From Methanomicrobiales archaeon (GTDB lineage Archaea > Halobacteriota > Methanomicrobia > Methanomicrobiales > JACTUA01), in assembly GCA_015660865.1 (NCBI GenBank), contig JACTUA010000006.1:87777-151776 (forward strand): a stretch of 64,000 nucleotides of DNA, written 5' to 3'. Each line of letters begins with the position of its first letter. Within the stretch, counting starts at the first letter, position 1. Below the pieces are notes generated by a model. It had not been told where the DNA came from. It did no database searches and worked only from the letters and a program-made list of their open reading frames with translations. Made by a program: the position numbers and the translations under genes. Shown here piece by piece: positions 2,331 to 26,478 of this stretch.

Positions 2331-2747
2331 ATGGGTATTGTCTCCGAGTTCAAGGCGTTCGCCATGCGGGGGAGTGTTGTCGACCTCGCCGTGGGTATCA
2401 TCATCGGTATCGCCTTCGGGCAGATCGTCACTTCCTTCGTGAACGATGTCATCATGCCTCCCATCGGTCTCCTGCTGGGGAAAGTGAACTTCTCTGACCT
2501 CTTTATCGATCTCTCGGGAAAGGGGTATGCCAGCCTCGCCGCTGCCAAGGTGGCAGGTGCACCCGTGATCGCCTACGGCGCCTTCATCAACACCATCATC
2601 AACTTCATCATCATCGCCCTCGTCGTCTTCCTCATTGTGCGGATGATTACCCACATGATGAAGAAAGAGGAGAAGGAGGCTCCACCGGCCCCGCCCAGCA
2701 AGGAAGTCCAGCTGCTGACCGAGATCAGGGACTCCCTGAAGAAATAG
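2331..2747 (+). CDS. mscL: Large-conductance mechanosensitive channel
   Basis: 138 aa. The N-terminus [40 protein letters not shown] is the canonical MscL sequence. A second TM helix and a charged C-terminal helix follow. Confidence 0.9.
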
Positions 2748-2879
2748 GAGATCAACCTTTTTCCTGCCGCCATGGAACCGACCCCATTCACCGGCGGGGA
2801 TCGAGAGGGGACCATCAGGTTTTTAACCCATCCCGTGCGTACCCTCCCCGACCATTGACCTGAAGAGGCAGGAGGAAAG

Positions 2880-3287
2880 ATGTCAGAAGAACTGGAGGCA
2901 CAACGCGAGCTCACAGAGGACCTGCTCGCCCGGCTCGTGGATCCGAGGGAGAATGTGCGGGAGACAGCGGCAGAGGCCCTTGCGGTGAGCACCGAGGATG
3001 AGGACTGGAGGCCGGACGACCTGATTCTCGGGGAGGGTATCGGGATCATCACCGACCTCCTCGGAGACAGAAATATTCACATCGTCCGATCGGCGATTGC
3101 GATCATCATCGCCATCGCAACCGCTGGAGAAGAAGAAGCCCTGGTCAGCCACGGGGTGATCGAAAGGCTCGACCGGATACAGGACCATAAAGATCCCCTG
3201 ATCCGGGAGAAGGTCCACGAGGCGCTCTGGCTCCTCACCCCCGAGGTCGAGGACGTGGTGGCGTCAAAGACCCAGGATGAATACTGA
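2880..3287 (+). CDS. HEAT-repeat (PBS-lyase-like) protein
   Basis: 135 aa and acidic. It has repeated D..xVRxxAAEAL-type helical motifs (DPRENVRETAAEALA, DPLIREKVHEALW). Confidence 0.6.
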   Translation: MSEELEAQRELTEDLLARLVDPRENVRETAAEALAVSTEDEDWRPDDLILGEGIGIITDLLGDRNIHIVRSAIAIIIAIATAGEEEALVSHGVIERLDRIQDHKDPLIREKVHEALWLLTPEVEDVVASKTQDEY

Positions 3288-3349
3288 ACCGGTGACGGCG
3301 GATCCCTGACCTTCCGGAGGGAGAAGTCAAAAATCCGGAACCCCCGGGA

Positions 3350-3619
3350 TCAGAGGGTGATCCCGAAGAAGGCGAGGATTATCAGGAGAATCGCCCCGGG
3401 CAGCCCGGCGAGGGCGCAGATGATGACCGTGATCCAGTCAATCCCGATATCGGGTTTCCCTAAATACTGCATCAGGTGGAAGTAGTTGACGGCAAAAAGG
3501 GTCAGGAGCCCGACGATGGAGTTGATCACCAGGTGGCCGATATTCCTGATGACAAAGTACACGACCGCCGCAAAGACAATGATGACCAGGAAGAGGACGA
3601 GAACACCGATCAGATCCAT
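3350..3619 (-). CDS. Small membrane protein of the BofA-like family
   Basis: 89 aa with three hydrophobic helices. The motifs INSIVGLLTLFAVN and ALAGLPGAILLIIL resemble the pro-sigmaK processing inhibitor BofA family. Confidence 0.55.
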   Translation of the reverse strand: MDLIGVLVLFLVIIVFAAVVYFVIRNIGHLVINSIVGLLTLFAVNYFHLMQYLGKPDIGIDWITVIICALAGLPGAILLIILAFFGITL

Positions 3620-3769
3620 AGCTAGCCATACTCTCTGGAGGGTAAAGAGGGTTTCGCTCTCCCTTTCACGATAGCGAAAAAGAAGCCCTTATTGAAAATA
3701 TTTCCTCCGCAATCCTGATATAATGGGTACATGGGGGGAGCCAGCCTGTTTCAGGGAGAAGGGATACGT

Positions 3770-4162
3770 TCACGCGTAGCCGGTGATATCGTAGTCGATC
3801 TCGGTGGACGTGCTGATGCAGTCCTTCCCGTGGACGAGGACCTCGTCCACCGTCCGCTTCAGGATCGCAGGATAGACCGCCCCGACGAGCTCGGTGACCG
3901 GGCGGCCCTGGCAGAAGAACTTAAAGGTCGGGGTACCTTTCACCCCGTAGCGCTCGCCCGTGAAGAGGTTCACCGAGACATCGACGCGGGCGAAGAGGAC
4001 CTTGTCCCGGTATTCCTGGGCGTACTGGGCATAGTAGGGCGCCATGGCACGGCAATGAACGCATGTCGGGGTATAGAACATCACCGCCACAGGCAGCTTC
4101 GCCTTCTCCACCTGGTCATGGAACGTGCGGTCATCGACCTCGATCACAGGGGAACCCTCCAC
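3770..4162 (-). CDS. Thioredoxin
   Basis: 130 aa with a GTG start. It has the CxxC redox motif (TPTCVHCRAM) in a thioredoxin-fold context, followed by GVKGTPTF. Confidence 0.8.
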   Translation of the reverse strand: MEGSPVIEVDDRTFHDQVEKAKLPVAVMFYTPTCVHCRAMAPYYAQYAQEYRDKVLFARVDVSVNLFTGERYGVKGTPTFKFFCQGRPVTELVGAVYPAILKRTVDEVLVHGKDCISTSTEIDYDITGYA

Positions 4163-4332
4163 TGCACCACCCCGGATTACTCCTTGATCCGCGGATCATG
4201 TTATAGTTTCTGGAACCCGGAGCAGACATCGGCCGCCCCGGAGAACAGATGACCCTTTCGGATATTTTTCCCCGGTACATCTTTGAGGACAGGCTCAAAT
4301 TGGTACCCCCGCACGTCAGCCGGTGCTCCGGT

Positions 4333-4401
4333 CTTATATATAGAATTGAGAGGTATAACTATATATATAGATATATATATACAGACAGATTGTTTATATA
4401 C
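4333..4401. promoter_or_regulatory. AT-rich divergent promoter region with an alternating-AT tract and TATA boxes
   Basis: The sequences cttatatatag, atatatatagatatatatata (4361-4381) and tttatatac (about 25 nt upstream of ATG 4423) lie between the minus-strand thioredoxin gene and a plus-strand orphan ORF. Confidence 0.4.
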
Positions 4402-4422
4402 TTTCTGTGTGATCTCTCTTTC

Positions 4423-4824
4423 ATGGTGAGGAACACAGGTTGTGAGAACTCGGATGGCTGCAGTGCTGCTGTCCTTGAGCGCATGGTGGTGGACCCGGGG
4501 CCGAAACGGAAGGACACCGGAGAGGGCACCCTCCTTCATTGGTTCGACAGGGAGGAGGATCATGAGTGTCTTCCTCCCGAAACTGGTCCAAAATCGGTAT
4601 CCGGTGAATCGGGAACCTACCCCAGTTTTCAGGTAGGCGGCTGGAAGTTCACTGTGAAGACCTGGGATCTCCATCTCATCGGAGATCTGAAGAACTACAT
4701 CGAGGATATCTCCCATTTCCCGCGGGCAGACGTGAAGTTCACCTCCAGGCTGGTCCGCTGCACCGAACAGGGCAGGCTCGGGGGATGGGCGTGGCAGAAG
4801 GAGCGGGTGCAGATCAGTTCATAA
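4423..4824 (+). CDS. Hypothetical protein (orphan)
   Basis: 133 aa counted from the internal ATG 4423 (MVRNTGCENSDGC...). A TATA-like tttatatac at about -25 suggests a leaderless transcript. Codon third positions are GC-biased like the neighbouring genes, and I recognise no motif. Confidence 0.35.
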   Translation: MVRNTGCENSDGCSAAVLERMVVDPGPKRKDTGEGTLLHWFDREEDHECLPPETGPKSVSGESGTYPSFQVGGWKFTVKTWDLHLIGDLKNYIEDISHFPRADVKFTSRLVRCTEQGRLGGWAWQKERVQISS

Positions 4825-5037
4825 GCATGGCCGGAAACGGGATTGCCATGATAAAGGGAGGTGATGCTGCTGCAGGGGGCGGGCAAAGGCCGCGCAGCTG
4901 GTGGGTCTTTCGCAGGTCCCGGAAGCATCGGCCAGGCAGGATGAGGAAGCCTGGTGAAACCGGGGCACACTGTGTTTTTATCTGGCTGAATGAGTACCTT
5001 CCCGGCGTTTGAGGATAGGGGAGTCCATTCCCCGTCA

Positions 5038-13857: not shown

Positions 13858-14673
13858 CTACTTCACCCCCATCCCCTTGAAGAAGGTATAACAGAACGTC
13901 CCGTCGGGTTCGCAGGTCCGGTAAAGATCCCTGATCCCCTGGTTCCATTCCTCTCTGCTGGCCAGGCCCTGTCCCAAGGCCTCATCCTGGACGCCCTCTA
14001 CCATCGCGGTGAAGGTCTGCTTCGTGAACCCTTCGACCAGCTCCGGGTGCGAGGCATCCACGTACACCATCCGGGGAGAGACGGCGACATCCCGGAACCC
14101 TGCCTCGGAGAGGAGCGGGTAGACTTCCCGGCCGATCAGGGCGTTCCCGCCCTTCTCCCGCTGGAGGGCAACAAGGCAGGATATGGCCTTCCTTGCCGCC
14201 TCGCTGTCCGGGGAGAAATATGCTGATCCATGGTCACCCTCGATGACCGTGATGGTACCGCCGGGTTTCAGGACCCGTCTGAGGCAGGTAAGGGCAGAAA
14301 CCGGGTCGGGGAGGTGTTCGAGGACGAAGCAGACAAAGACGTGATCAAAGGTCCCGTCTGCGAACGGCAGGGCGCAGATATCAGCCTGCAGGAATCTGAC
14401 GTTTCTGCTTCCCGACGCATTCACCCGGGCTTCTGCCTGGGCAAGGGAGGGTTCCGAGAGATCGATGGAGGTGATCACGGCCCCCGGGCTCTTCCCAGCA
14501 AGGGTGACTGTCTGGGCACCGATTCCGCAGCCTGCTTCCAGCACCTGGCTTCCCGCCGGATACCCGGTGTCGCGGTGGAGGAGACGGGTGAGTGCCCCTG
14601 CCTGGTCCAGGAGGCGTTTCGATTCGCGCCGTGTGTAACCATGGACATAGGCGCGGCCGGGGCCGGGGATCAT
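13858..14673 (-). CDS. Class I SAM-dependent methyltransferase
   Basis: 271 aa with motif I VLEAGCGIGAQT, post-I DLS, and motif II/III FDHVFVCFVLEHL and LKPGGTITV. Confidence 0.8.
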   Translation of the reverse strand: MIPGPGRAYVHGYTRRESKRLLDQAGALTRLLHRDTGYPAGSQVLEAGCGIGAQTVTLAGKSPGAVITSIDLSEPSLAQAEARVNASGSRNVRFLQADICALPFADGTFDHVFVCFVLEHLPDPVSALTCLRRVLKPGGTITVIEGDHGSAYFSPDSEAARKAISCLVALQREKGGNALIGREVYPLLSEAGFRDVAVSPRMVYVDASHPELVEGFTKQTFTAMVEGVQDEALGQGLASREEWNQGIRDLYRTCEPDGTFCYTFFKGMGVK

Positions 14674-14698
14674 CGCTCGGGCATCTTTTCGGATCCCG

Positions 14699-15184
14699 TT
14701 ACATGTTCTGAAGGGCCACGATGTCGGTCACGCCGGTGAGGCGCCAGAGGATGGATCGCTCCTCGGCGGCTATCGTCTCGATGGGTTCCTGGGGCAGGAT
14801 GCCGAGGGCGGCAAGGATATTCTTCGAGAGCTTCTTCAACTTGATCATGTTCACGAACTTCCCCCGGATCTTCTTCTTCTCGATGGCATCCTCGACCTCC
14901 TCGAGCCTCCCCTGGAGGGTGACGAACATGTAGCAGGACAGGTCCTGGCTGTAGCGCTCGACCTCCACCGAGACATAGGGGTTGGACCGGAAGTACCGGA
15001 TCTTCTTCCCGTAGCGGGTGGAGAGGAAATACATGAAGTTGCCGTCGAAGACATAGAGGAATGGCGCGATGTAGGGGTACTTCTCGCCCAAGAATGCGAT
15101 CCTCGAGACATAGCCTTCGGTGATAAGCGCGTCGTAATCCTGCTTCTCCATCCTGGGGATTTTGACGATCTCCATGGCGACCAA
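14699..15184 (-). CDS. Pyridoxamine 5'-phosphate oxidase-family FMN-binding protein
   Basis: 161 aa. The pattern VSRIAFLGEKYPYIAPFLYVFDGNFMYFLSTRYGKKIRYFRSNPYVSVEV is typical of the split-barrel family. Confidence 0.65.
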   Translation of the reverse strand: MVAMEIVKIPRMEKQDYDALITEGYVSRIAFLGEKYPYIAPFLYVFDGNFMYFLSTRYGKKIRYFRSNPYVSVEVERYSQDLSCYMFVTLQGRLEEVEDAIEKKKIRGKFVNMIKLKKLSKNILAALGILPQEPIETIAAEERSILWRLTGVTDIVALQNM

Positions 15185-15359
15185 CAGCTTGAATACCGCA
15201 TCCCGTTTTATAAAGGTTCTGATGCGTCACCGGGAGATCCAGAGCGGGTCTCACCTGCATACTCCTTGAACTCACCCAGCGGGGAAGGAGAGCACGAGAC
15301 CGTATCGGTCGCTGCTCCCCTATTTATCCCATAAGGGTTCCCATGCTGAAGAGACAGAG

Positions 15360-16283
15360 ATGGATCGGGAGAGGGATATCCAGCGGGAATTATCAGCCAT
15401 GGAGGAGTCCATCAGGGCCCGCTACCGGAGCGACGGTCTCACCACCGGCCTTGTCCGGCTTTTCCAGAAATTTCTGATGCTCTTCTATAACTCCTGTGGC
15501 AGGGATCTCCCGTGGCGAAGAACGACCGATCCCTACCGGATCCTCGTCTCGGAGTTCATGCTCCAGCAGACACAGGTGGAGCGGGTCCTTGTAAAGTATC
15601 CGGAATTCCTCGGACGTTTCCCCGACATCGAGGTGCTCGCCCGCGCCCCGAGGCACGAGGTGCTCCTCGCCTGGCAGGGCCTCGGCTACAACCGGCGGGC
15701 CCTTTCCCTCCACGAGACGGCCCGGAGGGTCGTGGACGAGTACCATGGATCGGTCCCGCTCGACCGGACCCTCCTCGACTCTCTCCCCGGTATCGGGGGG
15801 GCGACCGCGGGGGCAATCGTGGTGTTTTCCACGAACCGGCCGGAGATCTTCATCGAGACAAACATCCGGCGTGTGTATATCCACCTCTTCTTCCCCGATG
15901 CCGTAAAGGTCCATGACCGTGAGATTGAACCGATCCTCGGGAAGACGATGATAAAGAAACAACCCCGGGAGTTCTATTACGCCCTGATGGACTACGGGTC
16001 TGCCCTCAAAAAGGGCATAGGGGACCCGAACGGATCGCTCCTGAAGAGAGGAGCCATGAACCCGAACACGAGGAGCGCCTCCTACTCGAGGCAGAGCACG
16101 TTCCAGGGGTCGGATCGCCAGGTGCGGGGGATCCTCCTCCGCCATCTCCTGGCAGGAAACGGAGCCCGTGAAGAGGAACTGAGAGACCTCGCACGCGTCG
16201 AGCCCGGACGGCTGGAACGAATCCTCAAGGGACTGGAAAGGGATGGGTTCATAGAACGGTCAGGGGGCAGGATCCGATGTTAG
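15360..16283 (+). CDS. HhH-GPD base-excision DNA glycosylase (MutY/EndoIII-like)
   Basis: 307 aa with LPWR..DPYRILVSEFMLQQTQV, GLGYNRRA, and helix-hairpin-helix LPGIGGATAGAI. No C-x6-C-x2-C-x5-C cluster motif is visible, and the C-terminal ~60 aa look like a winged helix. Confidence 0.75.
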   Translation: MDRERDIQRELSAMEESIRARYRSDGLTTGLVRLFQKFLMLFYNSCGRDLPWRRTTDPYRILVSEFMLQQTQVERVLVKYPEFLGRFPDIEVLARAPRHEVLLAWQGLGYNRRALSLHETARRVVDEYHGSVPLDRTLLDSLPGIGGATAGAIVVFSTNRPEIFIETNIRRVYIHLFFPDAVKVHDREIEPILGKTMIKKQPREFYYALMDYGSALKKGIGDPNGSLLKRGAMNPNTRSASYSRQSTFQGSDRQVRGILLRHLLAGNGAREEELRDLARVEPGRLERILKGLERDGFIERSGGRIRC

Positions 16284-16504
16284 CGACCCTCGTGAGAGTG
16301 AAGGGTTGCACCGCATGACTTCGATGTCATGCCCGGGATCAAGGAAAAGGAGAAGAGTGCTCAGGCGATCGGGGTTACAGATGAGTGTCCCAGGCTCGTT
16401 CAGGGGGATCCCGAGAAACGGCCTTCCAGATCCCTGAAAGAGAAAGGTTCTTTTGAGCCATTATGCTATTCACGTACCATGGAGAAGGGAGAGAACGAGG
16501 GGGA

Positions 16505-17440
16505 ATGATGAAGTTTCTTGTGACCGGCGGGGCGGGCTTCATCGGTTCGCATCTGACACGTGAGCTCGCGAACCTGGGCGAGGTGACCGTCCTTGACGAT
16601 CTCTCCTCAGGGCAGACAGGGCGCATCCTGGACATCCTTGACCATGGGAAGGTGCAGTTGGTCCGCGGGAGCATCCTGCACAGGAACCTTCTTCTTGACC
16701 TTTGCAGGGAGGTCGACTGCATCTTCCATCTTGCCGCAGATGTCTCCGTGAGCCATTCCATGGAACGACCGCTGGAGGTTCATGAAGTGAATGCTACCGG
16801 GACCCTCTCGGTCCTCGCAGCAGCCAGGGAGTCCGGGGTGAAAAAGCTGGTCTTCTCATCATCGGCAGCTGTCTATGGAGCCAGCCCGGTCTCCCCGAGA
16901 TCAGAGAGTACTTACCCCGAACCCCTCTCCCCATATGCTGCCTCGAAACTCGCCGGAGAGTTCTACTGCGATGTGTACCGGCGTTCTTACGGCCTCCCGA
17001 CAGCCTCGCTCCGCTGCTTCAATGTCTACGGCCCTGCCCAGGATCCCCGCGGCGAGTGTGCAGCGGTTATACCCAGTTTCATCATGAATGTCCTCAGGAG
17101 AAGGCCGCCCGTCATATTCGGGGACGGGAACCAGGTCCGGGACTTTATTTCGGTGAAGGATGTCGTCAGGGCGAACATACTTGCCATGCAGCGGGACGCG
17201 GTAGGCACCTTCAATATCGGGACCGGAGACGGGGTGACTATACGAGATCTCGCGAGGGTCATCACGGAGATCGGAGGGCTGTCGCGCGAACCGGTCTTCG
17301 AGAAGCCCCGTCCGGGAGATATCCGGGAATCGGTAGCCGACATCTCCCGGGCAAGGGACGTGATGGGCTACCGGCCCAGGGTTCACCTCGTTGACGGACT
17401 TCGTGAGACCATGGAATGGTTCAGGGACCATCTGTTCTGA
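16505..17440 (+). CDS. NAD-dependent epimerase/dehydratase (UDP-glucose 4-epimerase-like)
   Basis: The start is placed at MMKFLVTGGAGFIGSHL (Rossmann GxxGxxG). The SDR catalytic YAASK motif is present. Confidence 0.85.
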   Translation: MMKFLVTGGAGFIGSHLTRELANLGEVTVLDDLSSGQTGRILDILDHGKVQLVRGSILHRNLLLDLCREVDCIFHLAADVSVSHSMERPLEVHEVNATGTLSVLAAARESGVKKLVFSSSAAVYGASPVSPRSESTYPEPLSPYAASKLAGEFYCDVYRRSYGLPTASLRCFNVYGPAQDPRGECAAVIPSFIMNVLRRRPPVIFGDGNQVRDFISVKDVVRANILAMQRDAVGTFNIGTGDGVTIRDLARVITEIGGLSREPVFEKPRPGDIRESVADISRARDVMGYRPRVHLVDGLRETMEWFRDHLF

Positions 17441-17581
17441 CATCTTCAAGGGGAAAGCCACCCCTCCAACGTTATGCCCCCTTTCACACCCCTCGCAGGG
17501 AAAAGAGCCGGGCCCCAGGGAACCCGCGTAGGAGAGCAGGGTAAGCCTGAGTCCCGTTTCACCTGGACGGGAGTGCAGAAT

Positions 17582-17716
17582 GGATCCGGGCACCGTGGGG
17601 TGCTGTAGGGGATCCGGGCACCGTGGGGTGCTGAGGGAATCCGGGCACCGTGGGGGTGATGAAGGGGATCCGGGCTACCGGAGGGTGCTGAGGGAATCCG
17701 GGCACCGGGCGAACGG
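17582..17716. repeat. About 4.5 tandem copies of a 28-29 bp hairpin-containing repeat
   Basis: The units gatccgggcaccgtggggtgctg(t/-)aggg repeat head to tail at about 17583, 17611, 17639, 17668 and 17696 (the last partial). Each contains GCACC-gtgg-GGTGC. There are no spacers. Confidence 0.9.
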
Positions 17717-17759
17717 TTTGTTTATCTCTCTCCATTCATAACTCATAGTAAGGAGAGAG

Positions 17760-18401
17760 ATGGAAACGCAGGACTCGATGAAGGAGTTCAACCGGCTCTA
17801 CCGTGCGACCATCCGGAGGATAGACGAGGTGGATGTGCCGGCGATGAAGTTCCTGATGGTGGACGGGTCCTGCAACGGGAGCAATTTCGATGAGTTCCGG
17901 CTCGGGATCGAAGGCCTCTTCGCCCTCTCCCACGCGATGAAAGCCGCCATTGCGAGGATACACATCGGGTTCGAGTATACCGTCATGCCCCTTGAATGCC
18001 TCTGGTGGGTGAGAGGCACGGGTGAGTACACCCCCGATAACCGGGATGAATGGAGATGGATCCTCATGGTGGTCCAGCCCAATTACGTCACGAGCGCCCT
18101 GGCACGGGAGGCCCTCAGCACCATGGACCGGGAAAAGTTCCTTCCCGGCATCTCGAAGGTCCGCTACGGGGTCTTCACCGAAGGGCTCTCGGTCCAGACC
18201 CTCCACAACGGGCCGAGGGCCGAGAAATGGACCACCATCAACCGGCTCCGGGCCTTCATCGAGAAGAAGGGCTACCAAGTCAGGGGCAGACACCATGAGA
18301 TCTATATCTCTGACCCGAGAACCCTGAGTCCCGAGAAGATGAAGATGATCATCCGCCTCCCGATCCGGTTCCCCGAACACGATGAGAGAGCCCGTCAGTG
18401 A
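17760..18401 (+). CDS. GyrI-like small-molecule-binding domain protein
   Basis: 213 aa with VPAMKFLMVDG, PLECLWW, RWILMVVQPNYVT, EGLSVQTLHNGP and RGRHHEIYISDPR, which match the GyrI-like/YdeE family pattern. Confidence 0.75.
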   Translation: METQDSMKEFNRLYRATIRRIDEVDVPAMKFLMVDGSCNGSNFDEFRLGIEGLFALSHAMKAAIARIHIGFEYTVMPLECLWWVRGTGEYTPDNRDEWRWILMVVQPNYVTSALAREALSTMDREKFLPGISKVRYGVFTEGLSVQTLHNGPRAEKWTTINRLRAFIEKKGYQVRGRHHEIYISDPRTLSPEKMKMIIRLPIRFPEHDERARQ

Positions 18402-18420
18402 GGAATGGTAAGGGGGAGGG

Positions 18421-19389
18421 ATGCCAGGCTGCTCGGTCATCACGGCAGATCTCTTCTCGGTCCATGATATGCCGGGTCACCCCGAGTGCAACGCACGCCT
18501 GATCGGGGCCCTCTCCGGGGTTCCCCGTGATATTCCCCGTTATCAGCCGGTGAAAGCCCTGCGCGAGGACGTTGAGAGGATTCACATCCCCGAGTACGTG
18601 AGCGGGCTCGAAGAGGCATGTGCCGGCACCCGGACCTTCACCATGCTGGATCCGGACACCTACGTCACCCATTCCTCGTTCGACGTGGCGCTCTATGCTG
18701 CCGGGGGCGCCATCGGGGCCGCGGATCGGGCGCTCTCGGGGGAGCACTGTTTCGCGCTCGTCAGGCCACCCGGCCACCATGCCGAGAGAGATCGTGCGAT
18801 GGGATTCTGCCTGCTCAACAACGTGGCTATCGCCGCGGCCAGGGCCCTCGGGAAGGTCGAGCGGGTTGCCATCGTGGACTGGGATGTGCACCATGGGAAC
18901 GGCACCCAGCAGGCATTCTATGCATCCGACCGGGTCCTCTACTGCTCCGTCCACAGGGGTCACTATTATCCCTACTCGGGCAGGACAGATGAACGGGGAT
19001 CCGGTGCGGGTCAGGGTTTCAACCTGAACGCCCCTCTTGAAGCCGGATCGACCATCGCAGATTACGATGCAGTCTTCGAGGAGGTCTTTGTTCCGGCCAT
19101 CCGCAAATTCCGCCCCGAGCTGCTCCTCGTCTCGGCAGGCCAGGATATCCTCTCTGATGATCCCCTCGGGGGGATGGAGCTGTACCCCGCCGACCTCGGC
19201 CTCCTCACCTTGCGGCTCATGAAGGCCGGCGGACTCCCCCTGGCCCTGGTCCTCGAAGGCGGTTACGGCCCCTCCCACGGGGCTGCCATCGGCGAGATCT
19301 TCCGCGTTCTGGGCGGCGGAATACCGGAGAAGAAGGAAGGGACTCCCCAGGAAAGCACCGAGCGGGTCATCGAGGCGCTGAAGGGGTGA
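18421..19389 (+). CDS. Histone deacetylase-family deacetylase (AcuC/AphA-like)
   Basis: 322 aa with RPPGHHAERDRAMGFCLLNNVAIAA, DWDVHHGNGTQ and EGGY, the class I/II HDAC active-site motifs. Confidence 0.85.
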   Translation: MPGCSVITADLFSVHDMPGHPECNARLIGALSGVPRDIPRYQPVKALREDVERIHIPEYVSGLEEACAGTRTFTMLDPDTYVTHSSFDVALYAAGGAIGAADRALSGEHCFALVRPPGHHAERDRAMGFCLLNNVAIAAARALGKVERVAIVDWDVHHGNGTQQAFYASDRVLYCSVHRGHYYPYSGRTDERGSGAGQGFNLNAPLEAGSTIADYDAVFEEVFVPAIRKFRPELLLVSAGQDILSDDPLGGMELYPADLGLLTLRLMKAGGLPLALVLEGGYGPSHGAAIGEIFRVLGGGIPEKKEGTPQESTERVIEALKG

Positions 19390-19494
19390 GAATATAGGGC
19401 ACGTCGTCAACGTCTCCCTTCCACACATCGGTGTCCGGGAGGGCCACTCTCCATGATTATAGGGATGAATGACCAAACTCTCTTAAGGGACACT

Positions 19495-19791
19495 ATGAAG
19501 ACCATCCACCTCATCATCTCAATCCTCCTCGGCATGACGCTCATTGTGGCAGGCTGTACTCAGCAATCGACGGGACCAGGGCCAGCTGCGGGCGAGACCA
19601 CCCCCTCCGTCACAACGAGTTCAGCCCTGGCGAACCCGGCGGCCAAGTTCTGCGAGGAAAAGAACTACCGGTACGAGATACGGACGAACCCCGACGGGAG
19701 CGAGTACGGGGTCTGCATCTTCCCCGACAAGACCGAGTGCGAGGAGTGGGCCTTCTACCGGGGGACGTGCAACGAGACGACGGCGAGGTAA
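19495..19791 (+). CDS. DUF333-family small secreted lipoprotein
   Basis: The start is placed at MKTIHLIISILLGMTLIVAGC (signal plus lipobox). The C-terminus NPAAKFCEEKNY...GSEYGVCIFPDKTECEEWAFYRGTC is the DUF333 cysteine pattern. Confidence 0.65.
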   Translation: MKTIHLIISILLGMTLIVAGCTQQSTGPGPAAGETTPSVTTSSALANPAAKFCEEKNYRYEIRTNPDGSEYGVCIFPDKTECEEWAFYRGTCNETTAR

Positions 19792-19948
19792 AGAGAGGAG
19801 AAAAAGAAGGACTAGCAAAAGATCTTCTGGTCAGCTGCCTTACCTTCGGGTCGGCTCTCACTTCACTCCCAGGAGGATCCGGAGATCTGGGAATGCCGGT
19901 ATTGTTATGCTATTTTTCCGGCTGAATCCTACGATTAGGGGTAATTAA

Positions 19949-21058
19949 TTATTTGGCGATTATTTGATTCTCCTCAATCCAATTATCGATTAAATTTGGA
20001 ATGTCTTTCGAAATATTCTTTGAATCGAATTCTTTGTAGAGTTTTCCGATAATATCAGTTGGATAAATTTGATTTTTAATTCTATTATCTTTTAAGATGC
20101 ACACTTTTTTATTTAAACCAAACATGAGGCCAACTTCTAATACTATATTCGGATCAATTTCAACCTCACTCGATGACATACTTGGTGGATCAATAACGGC
20201 GATACCAAATTTAGAACCATATAGATAAGTTATTATATTATTATATACATCACCGTTAAAAACCCGATAATCAGCACGTATTCCTATCAAATTATGTTTT
20301 TTTAATACTTCGTTTATTCTAAGAAATATTTCATCGTTATGAGGATTTTTATCGAATCTCATCATTATAAATGCAATTATTTCAGGATTTTTGAACTCTT
20401 CTTTGAATAATGATAAACTATCTTGAATTTCTTTAGGAATTATTTGGAGATAAGAATCAGAAGTCAGAATGGGTTTTGGTGGTTTTACTTCAATCCCTCC
20501 CACTCCAGTTCCAATCTTTTTTGCGAAGTCGATTGACCCGTAATTAATAAAATTAACCCTTGAATGGGGTAAATCAGGACTTTTTCCAAATCTCATGATC
20601 TTCCAATAATAAATTGATTTAATTGAAATTTCAATTAAAAGTCCGTCGAATTCATTTAATTTATGTAATGAGACGAATATATTAATTTCAAATGGTAAAT
20701 CATCTGTAGTAATGCTTATTTCGTCTAAATATTTGTCACTTGCTTTTTTTCGAACCCCTCTATTTACTAATCGGTCTAAAAATGTTGAGGGGTCATCGAA
20801 ATAAAGATTTGGATGAAATTTTTTGTGGTGAAACGTTAACGATAGCTGTAAGTTTACAAAAGGATTCTCATTTTCCAAGTAATATCCATTTGAATCCAAT
20901 TCGGATTTAACTCTTCGAATGATATTTTCAATTTGTTCTACAGGTGATTTAAGTTGAAGAAAGTATTCTCCTTTAACAATAAAGTGTTCTGGTCCGTATA
21001 GCATTATGATACTATTAGAAGAAGGGAGATTTAATTTATATCCTCGGATGATCACCAA
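19949..21058 (-). CDS. AT-rich orphan protein with an unknown N-terminal region and a C-terminal nucleoside 2-deoxyribosyltransferase/TIR-like Rossmann domain (tentative)
   Basis: This long ORF sits in a block of roughly 22-38% G+C (hand counts of sampled 60-nt lines), against about 68% in the flank. The likely real start is ATG 21004, with gatataaatta about 27 nt upstream. The C-terminal motifs are IAFIMMRF, GIRADY, FGIAVID and PNIVLEVGLMFGLNKKVCIL. Confidence 0.65.
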   Translation of the reverse strand: MVIIRGYKLNLPSSNSIIMLYGPEHFIVKGEYFLQLKSPVEQIENIIRRVKSELDSNGYYLENENPFVNLQLSLTFHHKKFHPNLYFDDPSTFLDRLVNRGVRKKASDKYLDEISITTDDLPFEINIFVSLHKLNEFDGLLIEISIKSIYYWKIMRFGKSPDLPHSRVNFINYGSIDFAKKIGTGVGGIEVKPPKPILTSDSYLQIIPKEIQDSLSLFKEEFKNPEIIAFIMMRFDKNPHNDEIFLRINEVLKKHNLIGIRADYRVFNGDVYNNIITYLYGSKFGIAVIDPPSMSSSEVEIDPNIVLEVGLMFGLNKKVCILKDNRIKNQIYPTDIIGKLYKEFDSKNISKDIPNLIDNWIEENQIIAK

Positions 21059-21177
21059 CCGTTAATCGATATTGGCACTCTCAAACCTAGCATAGAGCTG
21101 GACTATGTCCAAGTTGACACTTGCGATCTACTCGAATAATATCGATATATAATGGCGAACAAAGAAAAATATCCCGG

Positions 21178-21257
21178 TCACCCCATCCCCCACTGCGCCA
21201 ACGTCGTGCGGGACGGGTCCACGTCGTGCCAGTCCCACTCGAGGGCCTTGATGATCC
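21178..21257 (-). repeat. polB 3'-end copy D (most distal)
   Basis: The minus strand reads ...IIKALEWDWHDVDPSRTTLAQWGMG-TGA. It matches copy C at 74/82 positions by hand alignment. It contains the 9-mer acgtcgtgc twice (21201-21209 and 21221-21229). Confidence 0.9.
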
Positions 21258-21322
21258 AGGAATGGTCCCCAGCAGGAGCAACAATCCAATATCACCGGGA
21301 TAATTCACAACTTCGCCGTGAC

Positions 21323-21487
21323 TCATCGCCGGGGCACATTCGCGAGGAGGATTTTTTCAATCTCCTTTAAATCCTCTTTCTTTTGCAGGACCCGGTTCTT
21401 CATGACAAGGGAAATCCGGGAAAGAACCTCGGGATCCCCTTCCTCCACCTTCTGGATGATGAGCTGGATGATATCCTCGGGAGTCAT
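21323..21487 (-). CDS. Possible 54-aa ORF, the only candidate gene in the third cassette
   Basis: The sequence is MTPEDIIQLIIQKVEEGDPEVLSRISLVMKNRVLQKKEDLKEIEKILLANVPRR*. It is below the ORF-track size cutoff and higher in G+C than the AT-rich sequence around it. No motif is recognised, and it may be a gene fragment. Confidence 0.25.
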   Translation of the reverse strand: MTPEDIIQLIIQKVEEGDPEVLSRISLVMKNRVLQKKEDLKEIEKILLANVPRR

Positions 21488-21815
21488 TCGCGAAGGGCAG
21501 CTACGTGGAACTCATGCCAAAAATGTCCCGCGTCAGCCGTATTTCACCCCTTGAAATATCTCTCGTGTATTTATGTTTTTCATCTTAATAATATATATAA
21601 CATTCTATCATTGTTAATCTCTAAAAAACGTTTAATCATCTTTTTAAGCATTTATATCGTTAATTGACGTTTAAAGATATTTTCCAGACCACCCCTCACT
21701 TTAGCCATTACCCCGCCAAGCCTTCCACTTCATCCCCCCTTATCCTGATGATATCATTGAAGGAGACTTGTCGGTTCATTCTTTAACGGTTAACGGGGCA
21801 CAATTCCGTTGTACG

Positions 21816-21899
21816 TTTTACCCCATCCCCCACTGCGCGAGCGTCGTCCGGGACGGGGCCACGTCGTGCCAGTCCCACCCGAGGGCCTCGATGATCCGG
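21816..21899 (-). repeat. polB 3'-end copy C
   Basis: The minus strand reads ...RIIEALGWDWHDVAPSRTTLAQWGMG-TAA. It matches the genic copy at 75/82 positions by hand alignment, and 2 further nt past the stop also match. Confidence 0.9.
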
Positions 21900-21989
21900 G
21901 AAATCAGGTTATTCGACATTCGAATGAAATGCATGCTGCCGACGACTTTCCTGTGATGGGATCTTTTCCCATAAAAAGATCGATATTGG

Positions 21990-22898
21990 TTATTGCCCCT
22001 TAGAATCCTGTTGACTCTTCAACATGAACTGCTGCCATTTGGCGCTCGAGAGATCCGGAAAATATCCTTCTCCTGCCTTAAAGTTTCCGGCGATGAAATG
22101 CCCACCATGACTTGGGGCGATCACGGAATCAAAAAAGTAGTCTTCGTAGTAGTTCCATCTCCAAGTATCATAGCCGTCAAGCCATCCGTTCTGGACTTGA
22201 ATTCGAAGCAGAATAGAGACCGAATCCTGGGTGCCCGGATAGTACCCATGATCCCCCGTTAAATCCGCATAGATCCAGGTAAATTGCATGCTTGAAGTAT
22301 TCGTGTATTTCTTCAATTCTGAGCCCTGCCATGCGGTCGTTTCCTCAACTGGGCTGGGTGGGGAAAAAGAAAACTTTGGAAGGATGATGGATTCATTGCC
22401 AACAGGATAAAGCGTATTTGCGTAATAAGACGGTGATTGAAGGTTATGCGCATTATCGTGTAGCTCGACTCGGTAGGTCTCATTCGGCCAGGAATCTGCA
22501 TGAATGCGGACAAACCAGAGTTCATTAGGGTTGGAAAAGATTTGCTTCCCATTTATATAGCTCAAATTCCATTCAGGAGGGGACGTGGTGAAAGAAATTA
22601 ATAATCCCTCTTTCTCGAAGTCTTCGGGCACGATCGACCGGTTTCCTATCATAGGTCTGCCATTCTTCACCGGGAGCGGAATATAAAAAGTGGCATTTTG
22701 AAGGGGACCATAGTTCTGAATATACAGATCGTATTCAAAACCCTTGGATAGAAATTCAGGAAATACCTCATTGCTTGGCAACAGTGGCATGAGGACGAAG
22801 AATGCGTAACCAAAAATCACGGAGGAGAGGATCCAAAGGATGAGTACAAGGAGGACTGCCGCAAGAATGGCTAATATGACGTTCCTTGAGGAAGACAC
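21990..22898 (-). CDS. Cassette ORF X: signal-anchored extracytoplasmic protein of unknown function
   Basis: 302 aa with a GTG start. The N-terminus has positive charge followed by a TM helix (RNVILAILAAVLLVLILWILSSVIFGYAFFVL). The remainder is aromatic-rich and carries six N-x-S/T sequons (NAT, NRS, NLS, NET, NES, NTS). G+C is clearly below the core genes. Confidence 0.6.
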   Translation of the reverse strand: MSSSRNVILAILAAVLLVLILWILSSVIFGYAFFVLMPLLPSNEVFPEFLSKGFEYDLYIQNYGPLQNATFYIPLPVKNGRPMIGNRSIVPEDFEKEGLLISFTTSPPEWNLSYINGKQIFSNPNELWFVRIHADSWPNETYRVELHDNAHNLQSPSYYANTLYPVGNESIILPKFSFSPPSPVEETTAWQGSELKKYTNTSSMQFTWIYADLTGDHGYYPGTQDSVSILLRIQVQNGWLDGYDTWRWNYYEDYFFDSVIAPSHGGHFIAGNFKAGEGYFPDLSSAKWQQFMLKSQQDSKGQ

Positions 22899-22969
22899 AA
22901 TGAACCACTGGGTCGGGTTTTCAGGTACACTTTCAATATGCTATTATGCTCGGGCCGCCTTGAATCTGT

Positions 22970-23009
22970 CTATCCCATCCCCCACTGCGCGAGCGTCGTC
23001 TGCGACGGG
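22970..23009 (-). repeat. polB 3'-end copy B (short)
   Basis: The minus strand reads ...PSQTTLAQWGMG-TAG. It matches copy C at 36/40 positions, and homology ends after about 40 nt. Confidence 0.85.
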
Positions 23010-23043
23010 TATGCGGATTGCGAGTCCGCTCCAGAATTACTCC

Positions 23044-23967
23044 TTATGAAGGTTCGATCCCCTGCAAAGGTGTTGCCACAGATCTCCCTATGTATTCCTT
23101 GACAGCCGCGAAATTCTCTTCGGTGCAGATAAGGAGGATAATCGGCGATATGGATTTGCTTATTGGCGTGAGCCACGGTTCCGTTCCGATCCGTATTGTC
23201 AGAGAATCGGGGTGAACCTCTACAGCCCTGATAGCACTCCATGGGATGTGGGTGGACTCCCTGGTGAGAAATGCCAGCGAATCAGACATCTCCCCCCAGG
23301 CCATCAGGTAAAGGCCCCACTGCTGGGCTACCGTTAGGAAATTCCTGAAGGATACCCCATCTTCGTCCACCCAGTATTCCGCGAGGCCGGATCCATCGGC
23401 AGCCTCCCTGATGGTGTAGAACATCCTGCCTGCGTTCAACATGTAGGCGACGAGAACTCCCAGGCATACCGCAAGCCCCCAGTCTTTCATTTCCTGATCA
23501 ACCGCGCTTATCGCGATGAGATACATAATAGTCCCAACGAGGCCGGCACTGAGAAGAATCGGAATCCCCAGGCCGAATATCACCACGAGGGACGAGGGGA
23601 TCATCGCTATTCGCCACCTGATGGCGTTACTCTTCCTGTTCCATCCCCGTATTGAGGGAGCATCAGGTTGAACAGGGGCCGGTATGGTCCACCCCTTCAT
23701 GTCGGTGAGCGAGTGCTTCGTGGTTATTGCTACTCCCGCTCCCCCGATAGCATCCATGGCGAGCCTCTTCTTCCACCCCCGATGCAGAAGGTAGATTGCA
23801 GCACCGAAAACGAACAGAAGACCCAGGAGGGGATTGAAGAACAAACCGTCTCCGGTCAACAATTCAGGCCCGGCAAGAAGGAAGGTCAATAGGATTGTGA
23901 TGAGAAGGATCCCGACGATGGCGAGTATCTCGATTTTTTCAGGGGTTTTCCAGCCTGGCATGCTCAT
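23044..23967 (-). CDS. Cassette ORF Y: polytopic membrane protein with a C-terminal soluble domain, function unknown
   Basis: 307 aa with about five hydrophobic segments by eye, followed by a ~110-aa soluble tail (IPWSAIRAVEVHPDSLTIRIG...LLICTEENFAAVKEYI). An attttataa TATA box lies about 25 nt upstream of the ATG. Confidence 0.6.
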   Translation of the reverse strand: MSMPGWKTPEKIEILAIVGILLITILLTFLLAGPELLTGDGLFFNPLLGLLFVFGAAIYLLHRGWKKRLAMDAIGGAGVAITTKHSLTDMKGWTIPAPVQPDAPSIRGWNRKSNAIRWRIAMIPSSLVVIFGLGIPILLSAGLVGTIMYLIAISAVDQEMKDWGLAVCLGVLVAYMLNAGRMFYTIREAADGSGLAEYWVDEDGVSFRNFLTVAQQWGLYLMAWGEMSDSLAFLTRESTHIPWSAIRAVEVHPDSLTIRIGTEPWLTPISKSISPIILLICTEENFAAVKEYIGRSVATPLQGIEPS

Positions 23968-24031
23968 GGGAAGATGGGATGGGTCACGTTATAAAATATC
24001 TATCAGGAGATCCCGGAGGCGGAGATCTCTC

Positions 24032-24115
24032 TTTTACCCCATCCCGAACTGCGCGAGCGTCGTCCGGGACGGGTCAACGTCGTGCCAGTCCCATCCCAGT
24101 GCCTCGATGATCCGG
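24032..24115 (-). repeat. polB 3'-end copy A (functional gene terminus and candidate attachment site)
   Basis: This is the last 27 codons plus the TAA of polB (...SRIIEALGWDWHDVDPSRTTLAQFGMG*). It is the reference for copies B, C and D. Confidence 0.9.
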
Positions 24116-26478
24116 CTGATGGGCTGCCGGATTGTCTTCTCGAGCATCGTCTCCCAGTCGACGACGAACTCGGGGGGCACCTGGTCGCCGTACTCGAAGC
24201 AGAGGACATCGGTCTTCGGGTATTTGGCTTTCACGTTCCTGATGTAGATACGCTTCGGCTTGGACCCTTTTTTGAAGTCTGCTTTGAGGTGCATGTTCGC
24301 GTACTCGGCACCCCGCCTGTGGGCATCGTTCGTCTCGTACTGGTCGAGGGCCTTCTGGATCCCGCCGGGGATTCCCACCTCGTCAAGGCTGTACTTCCCA
24401 GCCCGGAATTTCGTGATGATAGCCCCAAGGTACGCCTTCACCTCGGGGAGGCCTTCTCCCTTCAGGATCTTCTCGATGACGGTCCGCTGGACCTCTTTCG
24501 TGATCTGCGGGTAGTCTGAGCGTCTGAGCTCGAAGCCAACAATATCGATCTCGTCCACGTCCTTCCCCTCCTTCCAGACGAGGTGCCCGGCGTAGCGCTT
24601 CTTCTTCCCCGCCTGGAAGAACCGCCGGTAGATCTTCTCAAACTTGATGGAGAAGTAGTGGGAGTCGGCGGAAAGTGTCTTCTTCGCGAACTCACAATAG
24701 CTCGCGTTCAGCGCGGCCTCGATCTTCCGGGCAGTCTCGATGGTCAGGGCCTCCTCCATCGGGGGAATCTGGACCATGCAGGAGTCGGTGTCGCCGTAGA
24801 TGACATGGTAGCCCAGGGACTCGATGACCGTTCTCGTGTGCTCGATGATGGCCCGCCCCACCGAGGTGACCGCTGCCCCGATTTCCCGGTCATAGAGCCT
24901 GAACCGGGCATAGCCCGAGACCCCGTAGTAGGTGTTCATGATGACCTTCAGGACGTTCTGCTGGAGGTCGTAGAGGATGAAATCAGGGGACCCGAACGGG
25001 TATCCGTTGCGGAGAGTCTTCTTCTGCTCCCGCTCCTTCAGGAGCTCGGCGATGATGGACCGGGTGAGCCCGTCGGGCTCGCGCCGGAAGCGGACCCCGT
25101 TCGGGGCCCGGAACTCCCCGTTCGGGTCCTTGGTCTCGGGCGAGGCGTTGATGGTCATCATCGCCATGGGGTACAGGGACTTCAGGTCAAGAACGACGAC
25201 GTTCTCCTTCACCCCCTTCGACGGGTCAAAGACCGTCGCTCCCTCGAACTCCTCGGCGGCGGCGAAGCCCTTCGACGGGAGGACAAACCGGCCGAAGGCC
25301 TTCCGGAGGATGTAGATGTCTATCACCTGGGAGGAGTTGAGGGTGCGGTCCAGGGGGCACCCGACGTAGCGGGCGATCTCCCGGTAGAACTCGATGATGT
25401 GGTTCTTCCGGTTGATGGCCACGCAGAGCTCCACGTCCTTCCTGTTGTAGTCCACGAGCCGGGCCGGGTCCTCCCTCCAGAGGGAGGAGAGGGTCCCCGT
25501 GAACCGGATCTTTGTCTCCCCGACCTCCTCCTCGGCTACGGCGTCCAGCCGGTAGGACTCCCGCTGGCTCCCGTGCATCTTCTTGTACGCGTCCAGGAGG
25601 TCGAAGAGGGCGCGTCCACGAAGCGCGGTCCGCTCGGTCCGCTCCTCCAGCCGCGCGAGGCAGGTCGGGTTCACCCCGAGGCGCTCCATCCGGGCGATGA
25701 TGTACGGGATATCGAATTCGAGGAAGTTCCAGCCCGAAAGGACGTCGGGGTCGCGTTCCCTCATGTAGCGGGCGAGGCCGAGGAGCATCTCCTTCTCGTC
25801 CTTGAACACCTCGACCGTGATCCTCTCGTCTGCTGGGGAAATGACCGGGACCGTGCCGGAGGCCGCAAGGAGGAAGCTCGTGTAATCGTCCTGGAAGGAG
25901 TCCCAGCATGTGATGGCGATGATCTTATCCCGCTCCGGCTCGGGGAACCCGCGCTCGTCCTCGCATTCGATGTCCATCATGCAGGTGCGGGCCGGTGCGT
26001 TCACCTCGGCCGCGCGGAGGGTGTGGTAATCTGCCTGGAGGGACGGGGCTTCGACGCCACCGGTAAGCCCATTGTCGATGAGGAACCGTGTCGCAAACGG
26101 GATATCGGCCTCGTAGTGCCTGTATCGTTCACGGTAATCCCTGACGTCGGTCGGTCTCCTGGTATAGAGCCTGCAGAGGGTCTCGCCCCGGATCGAGCGG
26201 TATGCATGGTCCGGATCGACCTCGACCCCGGAAGGGATGGGTGTCGCCGTGACCTGCTCCGCGGGGGCATAGAAGTACGGGCGGAAACCGGTCACCTCGA
26301 GGTGGACCGCCGAGCCGTTCCCGTCCCTCCCGAAGATGTGGATGACCGGCCCCTGGGGGCTGTTCGTGTACTCCACCTGGTTGATGGCGATGCGGATGCC
26401 GGAGTAATCGGCAAGGGTGCGGGTTATGGTACGCTTCTCAAAGCCCGGAACGACGGTCAGAGCCGCTCCCTCACCCAT
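24034..26478 (-). CDS. polB: Family B DNA polymerase
   Basis: The start is placed at MGEGAALTVV (ATG 26476-26478, overlapping the mdh stop). Exo motifs are DIECE and NFLEFDIPY. Polymerase motifs are SLYPMAMM, KVIMNTYYG and YGDTDS. Confidence 0.95.
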   Translation of the reverse strand: MGEGAALTVVPGFEKRTITRTLADYSGIRIAINQVEYTNSPQGPVIHIFGRDGNGSAVHLEVTGFRPYFYAPAEQVTATPIPSGVEVDPDHAYRSIRGETLCRLYTRRPTDVRDYRERYRHYEADIPFATRFLIDNGLTGGVEAPSLQADYHTLRAAEVNAPARTCMMDIECEDERGFPEPERDKIIAITCWDSFQDDYTSFLLAASGTVPVISPADERITVEVFKDEKEMLLGLARYMRERDPDVLSGWNFLEFDIPYIIARMERLGVNPTCLARLEERTERTALRGRALFDLLDAYKKMHGSQRESYRLDAVAEEEVGETKIRFTGTLSSLWREDPARLVDYNRKDVELCVAINRKNHIIEFYREIARYVGCPLDRTLNSSQVIDIYILRKAFGRFVLPSKGFAAAEEFEGATVFDPSKGVKENVVVLDLKSLYPMAMMTINASPETKDPNGEFRAPNGVRFRREPDGLTRSIIAELLKEREQKKTLRNGYPFGSPDFILYDLQQNVLKVIMNTYYGVSGYARFRLYDREIGAAVTSVGRAIIEHTRTVIESLGYHVIYGDTDSCMVQIPPMEEALTIETARKIEAALNASYCEFAKKTLSADSHYFSIKFEKIYRRFFQAGKKKRYAGHLVWKEGKDVDEIDIVGFELRRSDYPQITKEVQRTVIEKILKGEGLPEVKAYLGAIITKFRAGKYSLDEVGIPGGIQKALDQYETNDAHRRGAEYANMHLKADFKKGSKPKRIYIRNVKAKYPKTDVLCFEYGDQVPPEFVVDWETMLEKTIRQPISRIIEALGWDWHDVDPSRTTLAQFGMG

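Follow-up and report, generated by a model that had tools for sequence, protein, structure and literature searches.

We describe a locus in a 64,000-nt stretch (the window) of the genome of a Methanomicrobiales archaeon (contig JACTUA010000006.1, forward-strand positions 87,777 to 151,776), where polB, the gene for a family B DNA polymerase, is followed by three displaced copies of its own 3' end and by genes of foreign composition. The host is a peat-bog methanogen with DNA of approximately 62% GC. The polB gene lies on the minus strand (24034-26478) and encodes 814 amino acids from the ATG at 26478; its open reading frame (ORF) extends to a GTG at 26520, giving 828 amino acids. The product matches the Pfam models DNA_pol_B and DNA_pol_B_exo1 as well as NCBIfam models of DNA polymerase II, the latter below curated cut-offs. 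The exact 814-residue product is annotated in 18 public contigs, where the start is also called at ATG 26478.

Displaced polB ends and the cassettes between them

A repeat search returned one family with four members, namely the live end of polB (copy A, 24032-24115) and copies B (22968-23051, similar over about 41 nt), C (21816-21899) and D (21176-21259). The last three are located downstream of polB, each in frame with a stop codon. The live terminus spans 24034-24126 (minus strand), ending in ..PISRIIEALGWDWHDVDPSRTTLAQFGMG and TAA with a tail similar to a PCNA-interacting protein (PIP) box. The relics, all on the minus strand, measure 41 nt for B (22970-23010, with weak similarity up to about 23027), 82-93 nt for C (21818-21910) and 80-96 nt for D (21178-21267). 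Translations are ...IIEALGWDWHDVDPSRTTLAQFGMG-TAA for A, ...PSQTTLAQWGMG-TAG for B, ...IIEALGWDWHDVAPSRTTLAQWGMG-TAA for C and ...IIKALEWDWHDVDPSRTTLAQWGMG-TGA for D. These translations and the use of three different stop codons are exactly those given in a first-pass annotation of the window, which was made from the sequence alone. Its count of differences between A and C was also reproduced: over 25 codons, seven nucleotides differ, in four synonymous pairs (GCA/GCC, CTG/CTC, GGA/GGG and GTT/GTG), in GAC/GCC and at two nucleotides of TTC/TGG.

The similarity of every copy reaches no further than one or two bases from the stop codon, the point at which coding conservation ends as well. Considering the window and the other genomes described below, displaced copies have lengths of approximately 41-46, 62-63, 78-96 and 302 nt. 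Their left boundaries cluster near positions -45 and -80, both of which are edges of conserved coding blocks, and the length clusters may partly be alignment artefacts.

The copies delimit a 4.2-kb islet of 29-55% GC that fits exactly between polB and a DUF333 gene (19453-19791, plus strand; Pfam match). Each interval between copies consists of DNA of foreign composition, and the edges of the cassettes coincide with the edges of the copies. The A-to-B interval (cassette 1, 23011-24033, minus strand) holds ORF307 (23044-23967), which encodes a 307-residue multi-pass membrane protein without matches in Pfam, PADLOC, PHROG and NCBIfam. ORF307 is a real gene, because the ratio of nonsynonymous to synonymous substitution rates (dN/dS) against its orthologue in a sister species (contig L112, see below) is 0.28; its homologues form only two clusters among 5.8 billion proteins. 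The B-to-C interval (cassette 2, 21911-22969, minus strand) starts after copy B with the leader ATTCAAGGCGGCCCGAG, followed by ORF302 (21990-22898). The 302-residue ORF302 product is a secreted-type protein, with an N-terminal anchor and many N-x-S/T glycosylation sequons. It has 19 homologues, all hypothetical, and the two with a source name come from metagenome-assembled genomes (MAGs) of Methanoregula and Thermoplasmatota.

The C-to-D interval (cassette 3, 21268-21817, minus strand) contains an AT-rich spacer and ORF54 (21323-21487; 54 residues). Beyond D, the GC profile defines a fourth segment (19830-21177, minus strand), which consists of a 29%-GC gene (19949-21004; ORF to 21058) and about 120 nt of flank. 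This GC content is the most extreme composition in the window. The C-terminal domain of the gene product matches the CAP12/Pycsar-type TIR-like domain (Pfam PF10137, E = 1.9e-5), the only match to a curated family among the four cargo genes. This C-terminal domain is shared by 77 homologues with variable, unrelated N-termini, and one of them (P0002) adjoins AAA_15, dnd-associated and HTH_17 genes. A variable N-terminus joined to a conserved C-terminus is typical of defence effectors, which suggests that the TIR-like protein is a candidate defence effector of distant origin.

The window is matched at 100% identity in contigs assembled separately from many peat metagenomes, and a matching Methanomicrobiales MAG is available (GCA_049519435.1, contig JBEKQT010000001.1). 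In independent public assemblies, the same 5.4-kb array region is 100% identical at 22 loci and carries one single-nucleotide polymorphism at a 23rd. Because the same 5.4 kb recurs in independent assemblies, the array is genuine and not an assembly artefact. It is collinear across all 23 assemblies of the species, and since these are identical in this respect, we rejected the idea that the array varies within the population.

We compared the locus with 78 Methanomicrobiales species-representative loci, covering up to 10 kb on either side of polB (numbers starting with L denote these loci and additional contigs). From the polB stop codon to the DUF333 gene, the distance is 204 nt in L007, 964 nt in L005, which is the closest species representative, about 1.6 kb in L112, 2131 nt in L003 and 4246 nt in the window. 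Since this distance differs between relatives, the polB-DUF333 interval is a variable spot, and the DUF333 gene is its conserved right-hand border.

The live polB terminus

The last 150 nt of polB in the window are 92-95% identical to those of L005, L112 and L122 (L112 and its companion contig L122 represent a sister species), which is at least as high as in most of the remaining gene, and no breakpoint is seen. Since polB of the window shows no foreign tract at its 3' end, copy A is the normal, vertically inherited terminus of the clade, under purifying selection. All private changes of copy A are synonymous. Among the 78 functional orthologues, the polB stop codon is TAA in 38, TGA in 38 and TAG in two. 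No extra conservation of synonymous sites was detected at the terminus across 77 orthologues (codon entropy 1.31 versus 1.19).

The alignment of the polB tail with a 773-residue DNA polymerase chain (PDB 9gp8) stops immediately ahead of the C-terminal tail of that chain; in Thermococcales polymerases, this tail holds a PIP box. The residue that is Phe in the live end and Trp in the displaced copies of the window occupies the place at which a C-terminal PIP box would have its aromatic residue. Compared with the PIP-box consensus (PMC3504372), the C-terminal tail of polB resembles a PIP box.

Directly after the live stop codon, at about 24005-24030 on the minus strand, there is a near-perfect hairpin, GAGATCTCCG-CCTC-CGGGATCTC, which is kept in L112 and possibly marks where the transcript ends or is processed. 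In locus L016 (12385-12400), polB seemingly lacks its stop and continues for approximately 40 residues. This is caused by one extra G in a run of G; we rejected it as biology, a one-base homopolymer insertion being most likely a long-read error.

Substitution patterns in the relic ends

The first-pass annotation had proposed that each copy evolved as a functional polymerase terminus before it was displaced, pointing to the kept frame and stop and to the synonymous differences between A and C. We polarised the changes by comparing the copies with the live ends of L005, L112 and L122 and with an intact displaced fragment in contig L115, using L001-L003, L007 and L029 as outgroups. All four synonymous differences between A and C (at GCA, CTG, GGA and GTT) turned out to be private to A, that is, to the live gene, in which purely synonymous change is to be expected. 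The sole private change of C is GAC to GCC (Asp to Ala). Copy D has three private replacements (R to W, E to K and G to E), and one of its Leu codons has changed at two nucleotides (CTC to TTG); copy B has four changes in 41 nt, spread over codon positions. Residues replaced in C and D are invariant or nearly so in the 78 orthologues. The ratio of nonsynonymous to synonymous differences (pN/pS) is 0-0.2 among functional termini versus 0.46-1.63 for C and D compared with clade termini. A hand tally of private changes on the relics gives about four at codon position 1, two at position 2 and four at position 3, a roughly even distribution.

In neutral simulations with the number of private changes of each copy, the ORF and stop were kept with P = 0.82/0.62/0.70 when only substitutions were allowed and with P = 0.64/0.36/0.51 when indels were included; the joint probability across copies is approximately 0.12-0.36. 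A single change in TAA still yields a stop codon with P = 0.22-0.44, and the choice of stop is free among the orthologues. Two of about twelve displaced copies elsewhere are broken: that of L003 has internal stops and the first copy of L120 is frameshifted. The combined pattern shows that the relics drift neutrally and that the live end is constrained. With the relics being neutral, the earlier argument for selection fails; they still read as an ORF with a stop only because they are short and young.

A related possibility is that the displaced copies are selected mini-genes, expressed as PIP-box-like peptides that would bind PCNA. On the minus strand, an in-frame ATG ahead of copy C opens a 38-residue ORF over it (21818-21934, MHFIRMSNNLISRIIEALGWDWHDVAPSRTTLAQWGMG), which is called as a gene in several public annotations and would encode a free PIP-box-like peptide. 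The kept frame and stop and the resemblance of the tail to a PIP box agree with this idea. Against it stand pN/pS values around 1, replacements at residues that are invariant in orthologues, the lack of an evident start codon in B and D, the two broken relics elsewhere and a retention of frame that is within chance. We consider it very improbable. Selection on the relics was rejected on the basis of the polarised substitutions and the simulations of neutral decay.

The 9-mer ACGTCGTGC, which does occur in copy D at 21201-21209 and 21221-21229 as previously noted, had been suggested as a possible protein-binding arm. It is found once each in C (21861) and A (24077). The first occurrence in D is the W-H-D-V codon string common to A, C and D, and the second was made by D's own decay, the CTC to TTG change beside a CGC codon. 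The pair was therefore rejected as a binding site.

The codon at the Phe/Trp position carries information about age. TGG (Trp) is ancestral, all outgroups having it, and TTC (Phe) is present in A, in the live ends of L005, L112 and L122 and in the displaced fragment of L115, whereas C and D retain the ancestral TGG. The live end of the window is therefore the odd one out only within the window, as had been observed; in the clade, it is the normal end. Synonymous divergence (dS) of the window is 0.41 versus L005 and 0.36 versus L112, and an 87-nt neutral relic that predates those splits would be expected to have accumulated about 16 changes. Copy C has about one and copy D about five. Because they keep TGG and yet have too few private changes, C and D are not old local relics from before the change of Trp to Phe. 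We infer that they would have been copied recently from live Trp-type ends, either of another lineage or on transferred DNA; such a donor terminus would read ...WDWHDVDPSRTTLAQWGMG. Thus, of the proposal that copies evolved as functional ends before displacement, this much stands for C and D, which were constrained until recently or recently imported, while the evidence originally used for it does not. The four changes of copy B in 41 nt are compatible with an older junction shared with L112 and L122. An origin of copy B from His-type termini of the sister clade was rejected, because identities of 35/39 and 34/39 versus 33/39 are too close.

Gain or loss of a cassette relative to a sister species

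Contigs L112 and L122 are approximately 90% identical to the window at the nucleotide level and contain polB, an orthologue of ORF307, a single short copy, the ORF54 region and DUF333. Where ORF307 meets this copy, the junction is orthologous to the ORF307-B junction of the window, which must predate the split of these species because it is common to both. The sequence after the single copy is homologous to the flank that follows C in the window: the ORF54 region, 79% identical in L112, stands there directly after the short copy. The copy in L112 and L122 therefore has the left flank of B and the right flank of C, and at this place the window differs from them by exactly the ORF302 cassette plus one copy, both absent there. 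Over its last 41 nt, the L122 relic matches the live end of L005 without a difference, while copy B of the window differs there at seven positions. This points to exchange or conversion of the 41-nt core, with the decayed left flank remaining where it was.

These comparisons bear on a purely local history, in which the polB end was tandemly duplicated within the lineage and decayed neutrally, and unrelated genes were inserted later by other means. The neutral substitution pattern, intact frames compatible with chance and an array that is fixed and static in the population are all in line with such a history. It does not explain why C and D hold a Trp codon that the live termini of the clade have lost, being too undecayed to predate the loss, nor why foreign-composition DNA fills every interval with coinciding boundaries of cassettes and copies. 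The difference from L112 by exactly one cassette and one copy and the occurrence of the same architecture with other cargo in other lineages are further points against it, and we regard it as improbable. The earlier statement that simple local duplication plus decay does not account for the copies holds, on evidence other than that first offered: the foreign low-GC cassettes, the Trp codon and the small number of private changes.

Displaced polB ends in other genomes

Among the 78 species-representative genomes, displaced copies within 10 kb of polB were found in L003 and L017 only. In L003, a degenerate copy lies behind an ORF for a 264-residue membrane protein, and in L017 a copy lies behind a hicA/hicB pair. 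Four further arrays (L113, L115, L118 and L120) are metagenome contigs. L113 has a homologue of ORF302 (60% amino acid identity) with a short copy 22 nt later, where the contig ends. L120 carries two tandem genes of the ORF302 family, each followed by a copy, the first of which is frameshifted; the leader of the ORF302 cassette is common to the window and L120, where it also follows the first copy. In L118, a displaced end stands directly behind a divergent new end.

In L115, the polB end has 44% GC and is followed by a DUF4411/Peptidase_M78 (ImmA) pair of 31-36% GC and then by an intact, 302-nt polB end of 61% GC, which is 92% identical to L005 and thus of the type of the window's clade. Beyond it there is another ORF and then a 60-nt copy. 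The cassette genes of L115 are on the opposite strand, unlike the four co-oriented genes of the window.

Five of nine matches in the metagenome pattern scan (L116, L117, L119, L121 and L123) were rejected as chance matches in eukaryote-like repetitive or retroelement DNA from one Joint Genome Institute study. Several contigs (L001, L004, L006, L025, L029, L069, L073 and L113) end inside the polB terminus or within approximately 250 nt of it, and in three of them (L001, L073 and L113), a polB-type terminus lies about 10 nt or less from the contig end. Such ends fit assembly breaks caused by repeated polB ends or by strain variation in the DNA behind them, and arrays may therefore be under-counted.

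Candidate recombinases, sites and carriers

The main competing explanation is site-specific recombination. Here, the copies would be attL/attR-type sites of small integrative cassettes, similar to cis-mobilizable elements (CIMEs), integrons or satellites, with an integrase supplied by another part of the genome or by a helper element and an att site that mimics the polB end and restores the gene. Several features argue for it. The cassettes are small (0.6-1.4 kb) and co-oriented, with one gene each, and each is bounded by a repeat. The right boundary falls exactly at the stop codon, left boundaries cluster near two positions, and the exchange point in L112 and L122 is at the extreme left of the 41-nt core. 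The array is fully stable in the population, as expected without a helper. Furthermore, protein-coding genes are documented targets of archaeal integrases, alongside tRNA genes (PMC8371274).

No integrase domain was found in the cargo genes with Pfam, no integrase is present among public gene calls around the array or in any of about twelve cassettes, and a crude screen for the tyrosine-recombinase box motif returned nothing in the 64-kb window and one isolated, weak partial match (in L020) in the 78 loci with their flanks of up to 10 kb on either side of polB. The copies contain no inverted repeats or dyad symmetry, no dif-like 11-6-11 palindrome of 28 bp is present in or beside them, and no fold or hairpin signal was detected in them on either strand (DNA folding z-scores of -0.4 to +1.8). 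Independent cassettes share no arm-type or other flank motifs, apart from orthologous pairs and the ORF302 leader. The variation in copy length from 41 to 302 nt and the terminus showing no nucleotide-level constraint beyond coding also count against a recombination site. A degenerate codon pattern of the polB end gave zero matches in IMG/VR, and none were found in phage and plasmid collections. Altogether, site-specific recombination is less likely than the homology-driven route discussed below, but it is a serious competitor.

Three narrower candidates were rejected on these grounds. Sites of dif or attC type do not agree with the absence of inverted repeats in the copies. The idea that the insertions target an RNA gene or a structured element failed, with no Rfam match of meaningful score, no tRNA and no fold signal in the copies. 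A virus or plasmid that carries a mimic of the polB end was dismissed on the null searches of the respective collections.

Surroundings of the array

Upstream of polB are CODH/ACS, DHODH and mdh/ldh genes, a neighbourhood that is kept in the nearest relatives. On the other side, DUF333 is followed by a histone-deacetylase-family gene and then by a GyrI-like gene, in an order that is likewise kept in the nearest relatives. L005 has an extra block of about 7 kb (14000-21300) between its DUF333 genes and the histone-deacetylase-family gene, which is a second variable spot adjoining the first; the same genome has a convergent P-loop gene of the CLP1_P type directly behind polB. Elsewhere in the window, four G-rich direct repeats (GGGTGCTGAGGGAATCCGGGCACCGTGGGG-like, 28-31 nt, spaced by 27-57 nt) occupy positions 17570-17712 in the intergenic region of epimerase-family and GyrI-like genes, and positions 2001-5000 show a mild GC dip (55-57% versus about 63%).

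Discussion

We propose that the array arose by serial, homology-driven insertion at the conserved end of polB, in a manner similar to the "C-terminal displacement" known from toxin loci, and we assign this reading a probability of approximately 0.5. Copies B, C and D would be non-functional scars of at least three successive recombination events, each of which placed a foreign single-gene cassette behind polB. The last 40-90 nt of the gene, and up to 302 nt in another genome, would have served as the homology stretch. In each event, an intact polymerase end would stay at the gene and a second copy would come to lie on the far side of the insert. One candidate route is Campbell-type insertion by a single crossover, in which the foreign DNA has circularised and brings along a 3' piece of polB from the host it came from; another is homology-facilitated illegitimate recombination. 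Neither would need a dedicated integrase, and later recombination between copies could delete or swap cassettes. We infer this route, as opposed to a site-specific one, because recombinase and site features are lacking, copy lengths vary, the ancestry of the copies is mixed, and L115 has an architecture with a low-GC end at the gene and the end of the clade type displaced.

A number of observations weigh against homology-driven insertion. A stretch of 41 nt is short for homologous recombination, and to our knowledge no recombination requirements have been established for Methanomicrobiales. With no foreign tract in the live end of the window relative to its closest relatives, classical displacement, where the incoming DNA supplies the new live end, is not demonstrated here; a live end of donor origin is suggested only in L115, which is one contig from a metagenome. 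To explain the Phe-type core of the relic in L112 and L122, an extra step of gene conversion is required. L112 lacks copy D, the TIR-like gene and the adjoining 120 nt or so, and no copy is present at that empty junction, so a separate illegitimate event (deletion or insertion) is needed there. Clustering of left boundaries near -45 and -80 could mean fixed crossover sites, and all four cargo genes of the window are on the polB strand, a co-orientation as in integron arrays. The arguments about age rest on 41-87 nt, the recombinase search covered 64 kb of this genome, and no donor genome and no free or circular intermediate was found.

A more far-reaching idea is that the Methanomicrobiales might have a platform for capturing cassettes that does without a resident integrase and uses the end of polB that encodes the PIP box as its anchor. 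A trans-acting recombinase, or a short-homology pathway of these polyploid archaea, would insert and shuffle single-gene cassettes at the 41-nt core. The cargo would include defence-type genes, toxin-antitoxin pairs and surface proteins, possibly co-transcribed with polB. We consider this idea unlikely; if true, the platform would be an archaeal functional analogue of the integron, with the end of a housekeeping gene replacing attI and attC.

The consequences depend on the route. If insertion was homology-driven, short conserved coding ends could act as universal landing pads for gene flow between archaeal species, and relic ends would record which lineages exchanged DNA. If a trans-acting recombinase was involved, the array would represent a new archaeal cassette system. 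There is also a more general caution: an intact frame, a stop codon and a pairwise synonymous bias are no evidence of selection on a relic until the changes have been polarised.

Our literature search found no description of polB-end arrays in archaea. Several known systems share some features of the array. Some mobile elements restore the 3' end of a protein-coding gene upon integration, for example e14 and phage 21 in icd of Escherichia coli, ICESt1/3 and CIME accretion at fda, and SGI1 at trmE. The polB array shares with them the duplication of the target 3' end, a displaced copy with few substitutions, tandem att-like repeats and the existence of some integrase-less remnants. These elements have an identifiable integrase and a fixed block of identity, whereas no integrase was found at the polB array and its copies range from 41 to 302 nt. 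In bacteria, tycheposon-type and tRNA-anchored islands use a gene end as a reusable anchor, and partial anchor copies stand between cargo modules that include defence genes. The polB array is organised similarly, but its anchor is protein-coding rather than a tRNA gene and no tyrosine recombinase was detected. The choice of trmE as an integration target is mentioned in PMC8409611.

Integrons resemble the array in having short, mostly single-ORF, co-oriented cassettes that grow from a fixed site. They differ in the adjacent intI/xer-type gene, the folded attC-like sites and the Pc/attI layout, none of which were found at the array. Integron-like elements inserted in the polymerase gene rulB are mentioned in PMC4542609, and to the extent of that account, a DNA polymerase gene is a hotspot there as well. 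Modules bounded by Xer dif/pdif sites (integrative mobile elements exploiting Xer, IMEX) use 28-bp dif-like sites, which are not present in or beside the polB copies. Casposons are self-synthesising transposons that carry polB on the element together with a Cas1 integrase, terminal inverted repeats and a short target-site duplication, unlike the chromosomal polB discussed here, whose synteny is kept in 78 genomes and which has no Cas1 among the gene calls within 10 kb on either side.

A further parallel is provided by the C-terminal displacement arrays of Rhs, CdiA and type VI secretion system (T6SS) loci (Kirchberger et al. 2017, PMC5361080; Jackson et al. 2009, as cited in PMC5361080). In Rhs and T6SS arrays, homology-facilitated illegitimate recombination has been proposed as the origin, with later homologous recombination shuffling the modules (PMC5361080). 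Both there and in the polB arrays, displaced 3' fragments line up behind a conserved gene, each retaining part of its conserved coding sequence, with horizontally acquired genes between them and no integrase; serial displaced fragments of polB are present in the window and also in L003, L017, L112, L115, L118 and L120. The incoming tips of Rhs, CdiA and T6SS proteins are variable toxin domains accompanied by cognate immunity genes. The polB termini, by contrast, are PIP-like and almost identical to one another, and the genes inserted behind them (membrane proteins, a TIR-like gene, hicAB and DUF4411/ImmA) have no relation to the polymerase. Further differences are the anchor, which is the conserved tail of a housekeeping polymerase, the archaeal host and, in the window, a live end in which nothing foreign was detected.

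The phenomenon thus belongs to a known kind, that of gene-end scars of serial acquisition. It is unusual in its housekeeping polymerase-tail anchor, its uncultured methanogen host, the apparent lack of an integrase and the tiny size of its cassettes. Classical cases of such gene-end duplication come mostly from tRNA genes, polymorphic toxin loci and a small number of bacterial protein genes whose integrases can be identified. In the present case, the scar lies on the conserved tail of an archaeal replicative-type polymerase, and several uncultured methanogen lineages show it together with cargo of defence-like and toxin-antitoxin type.

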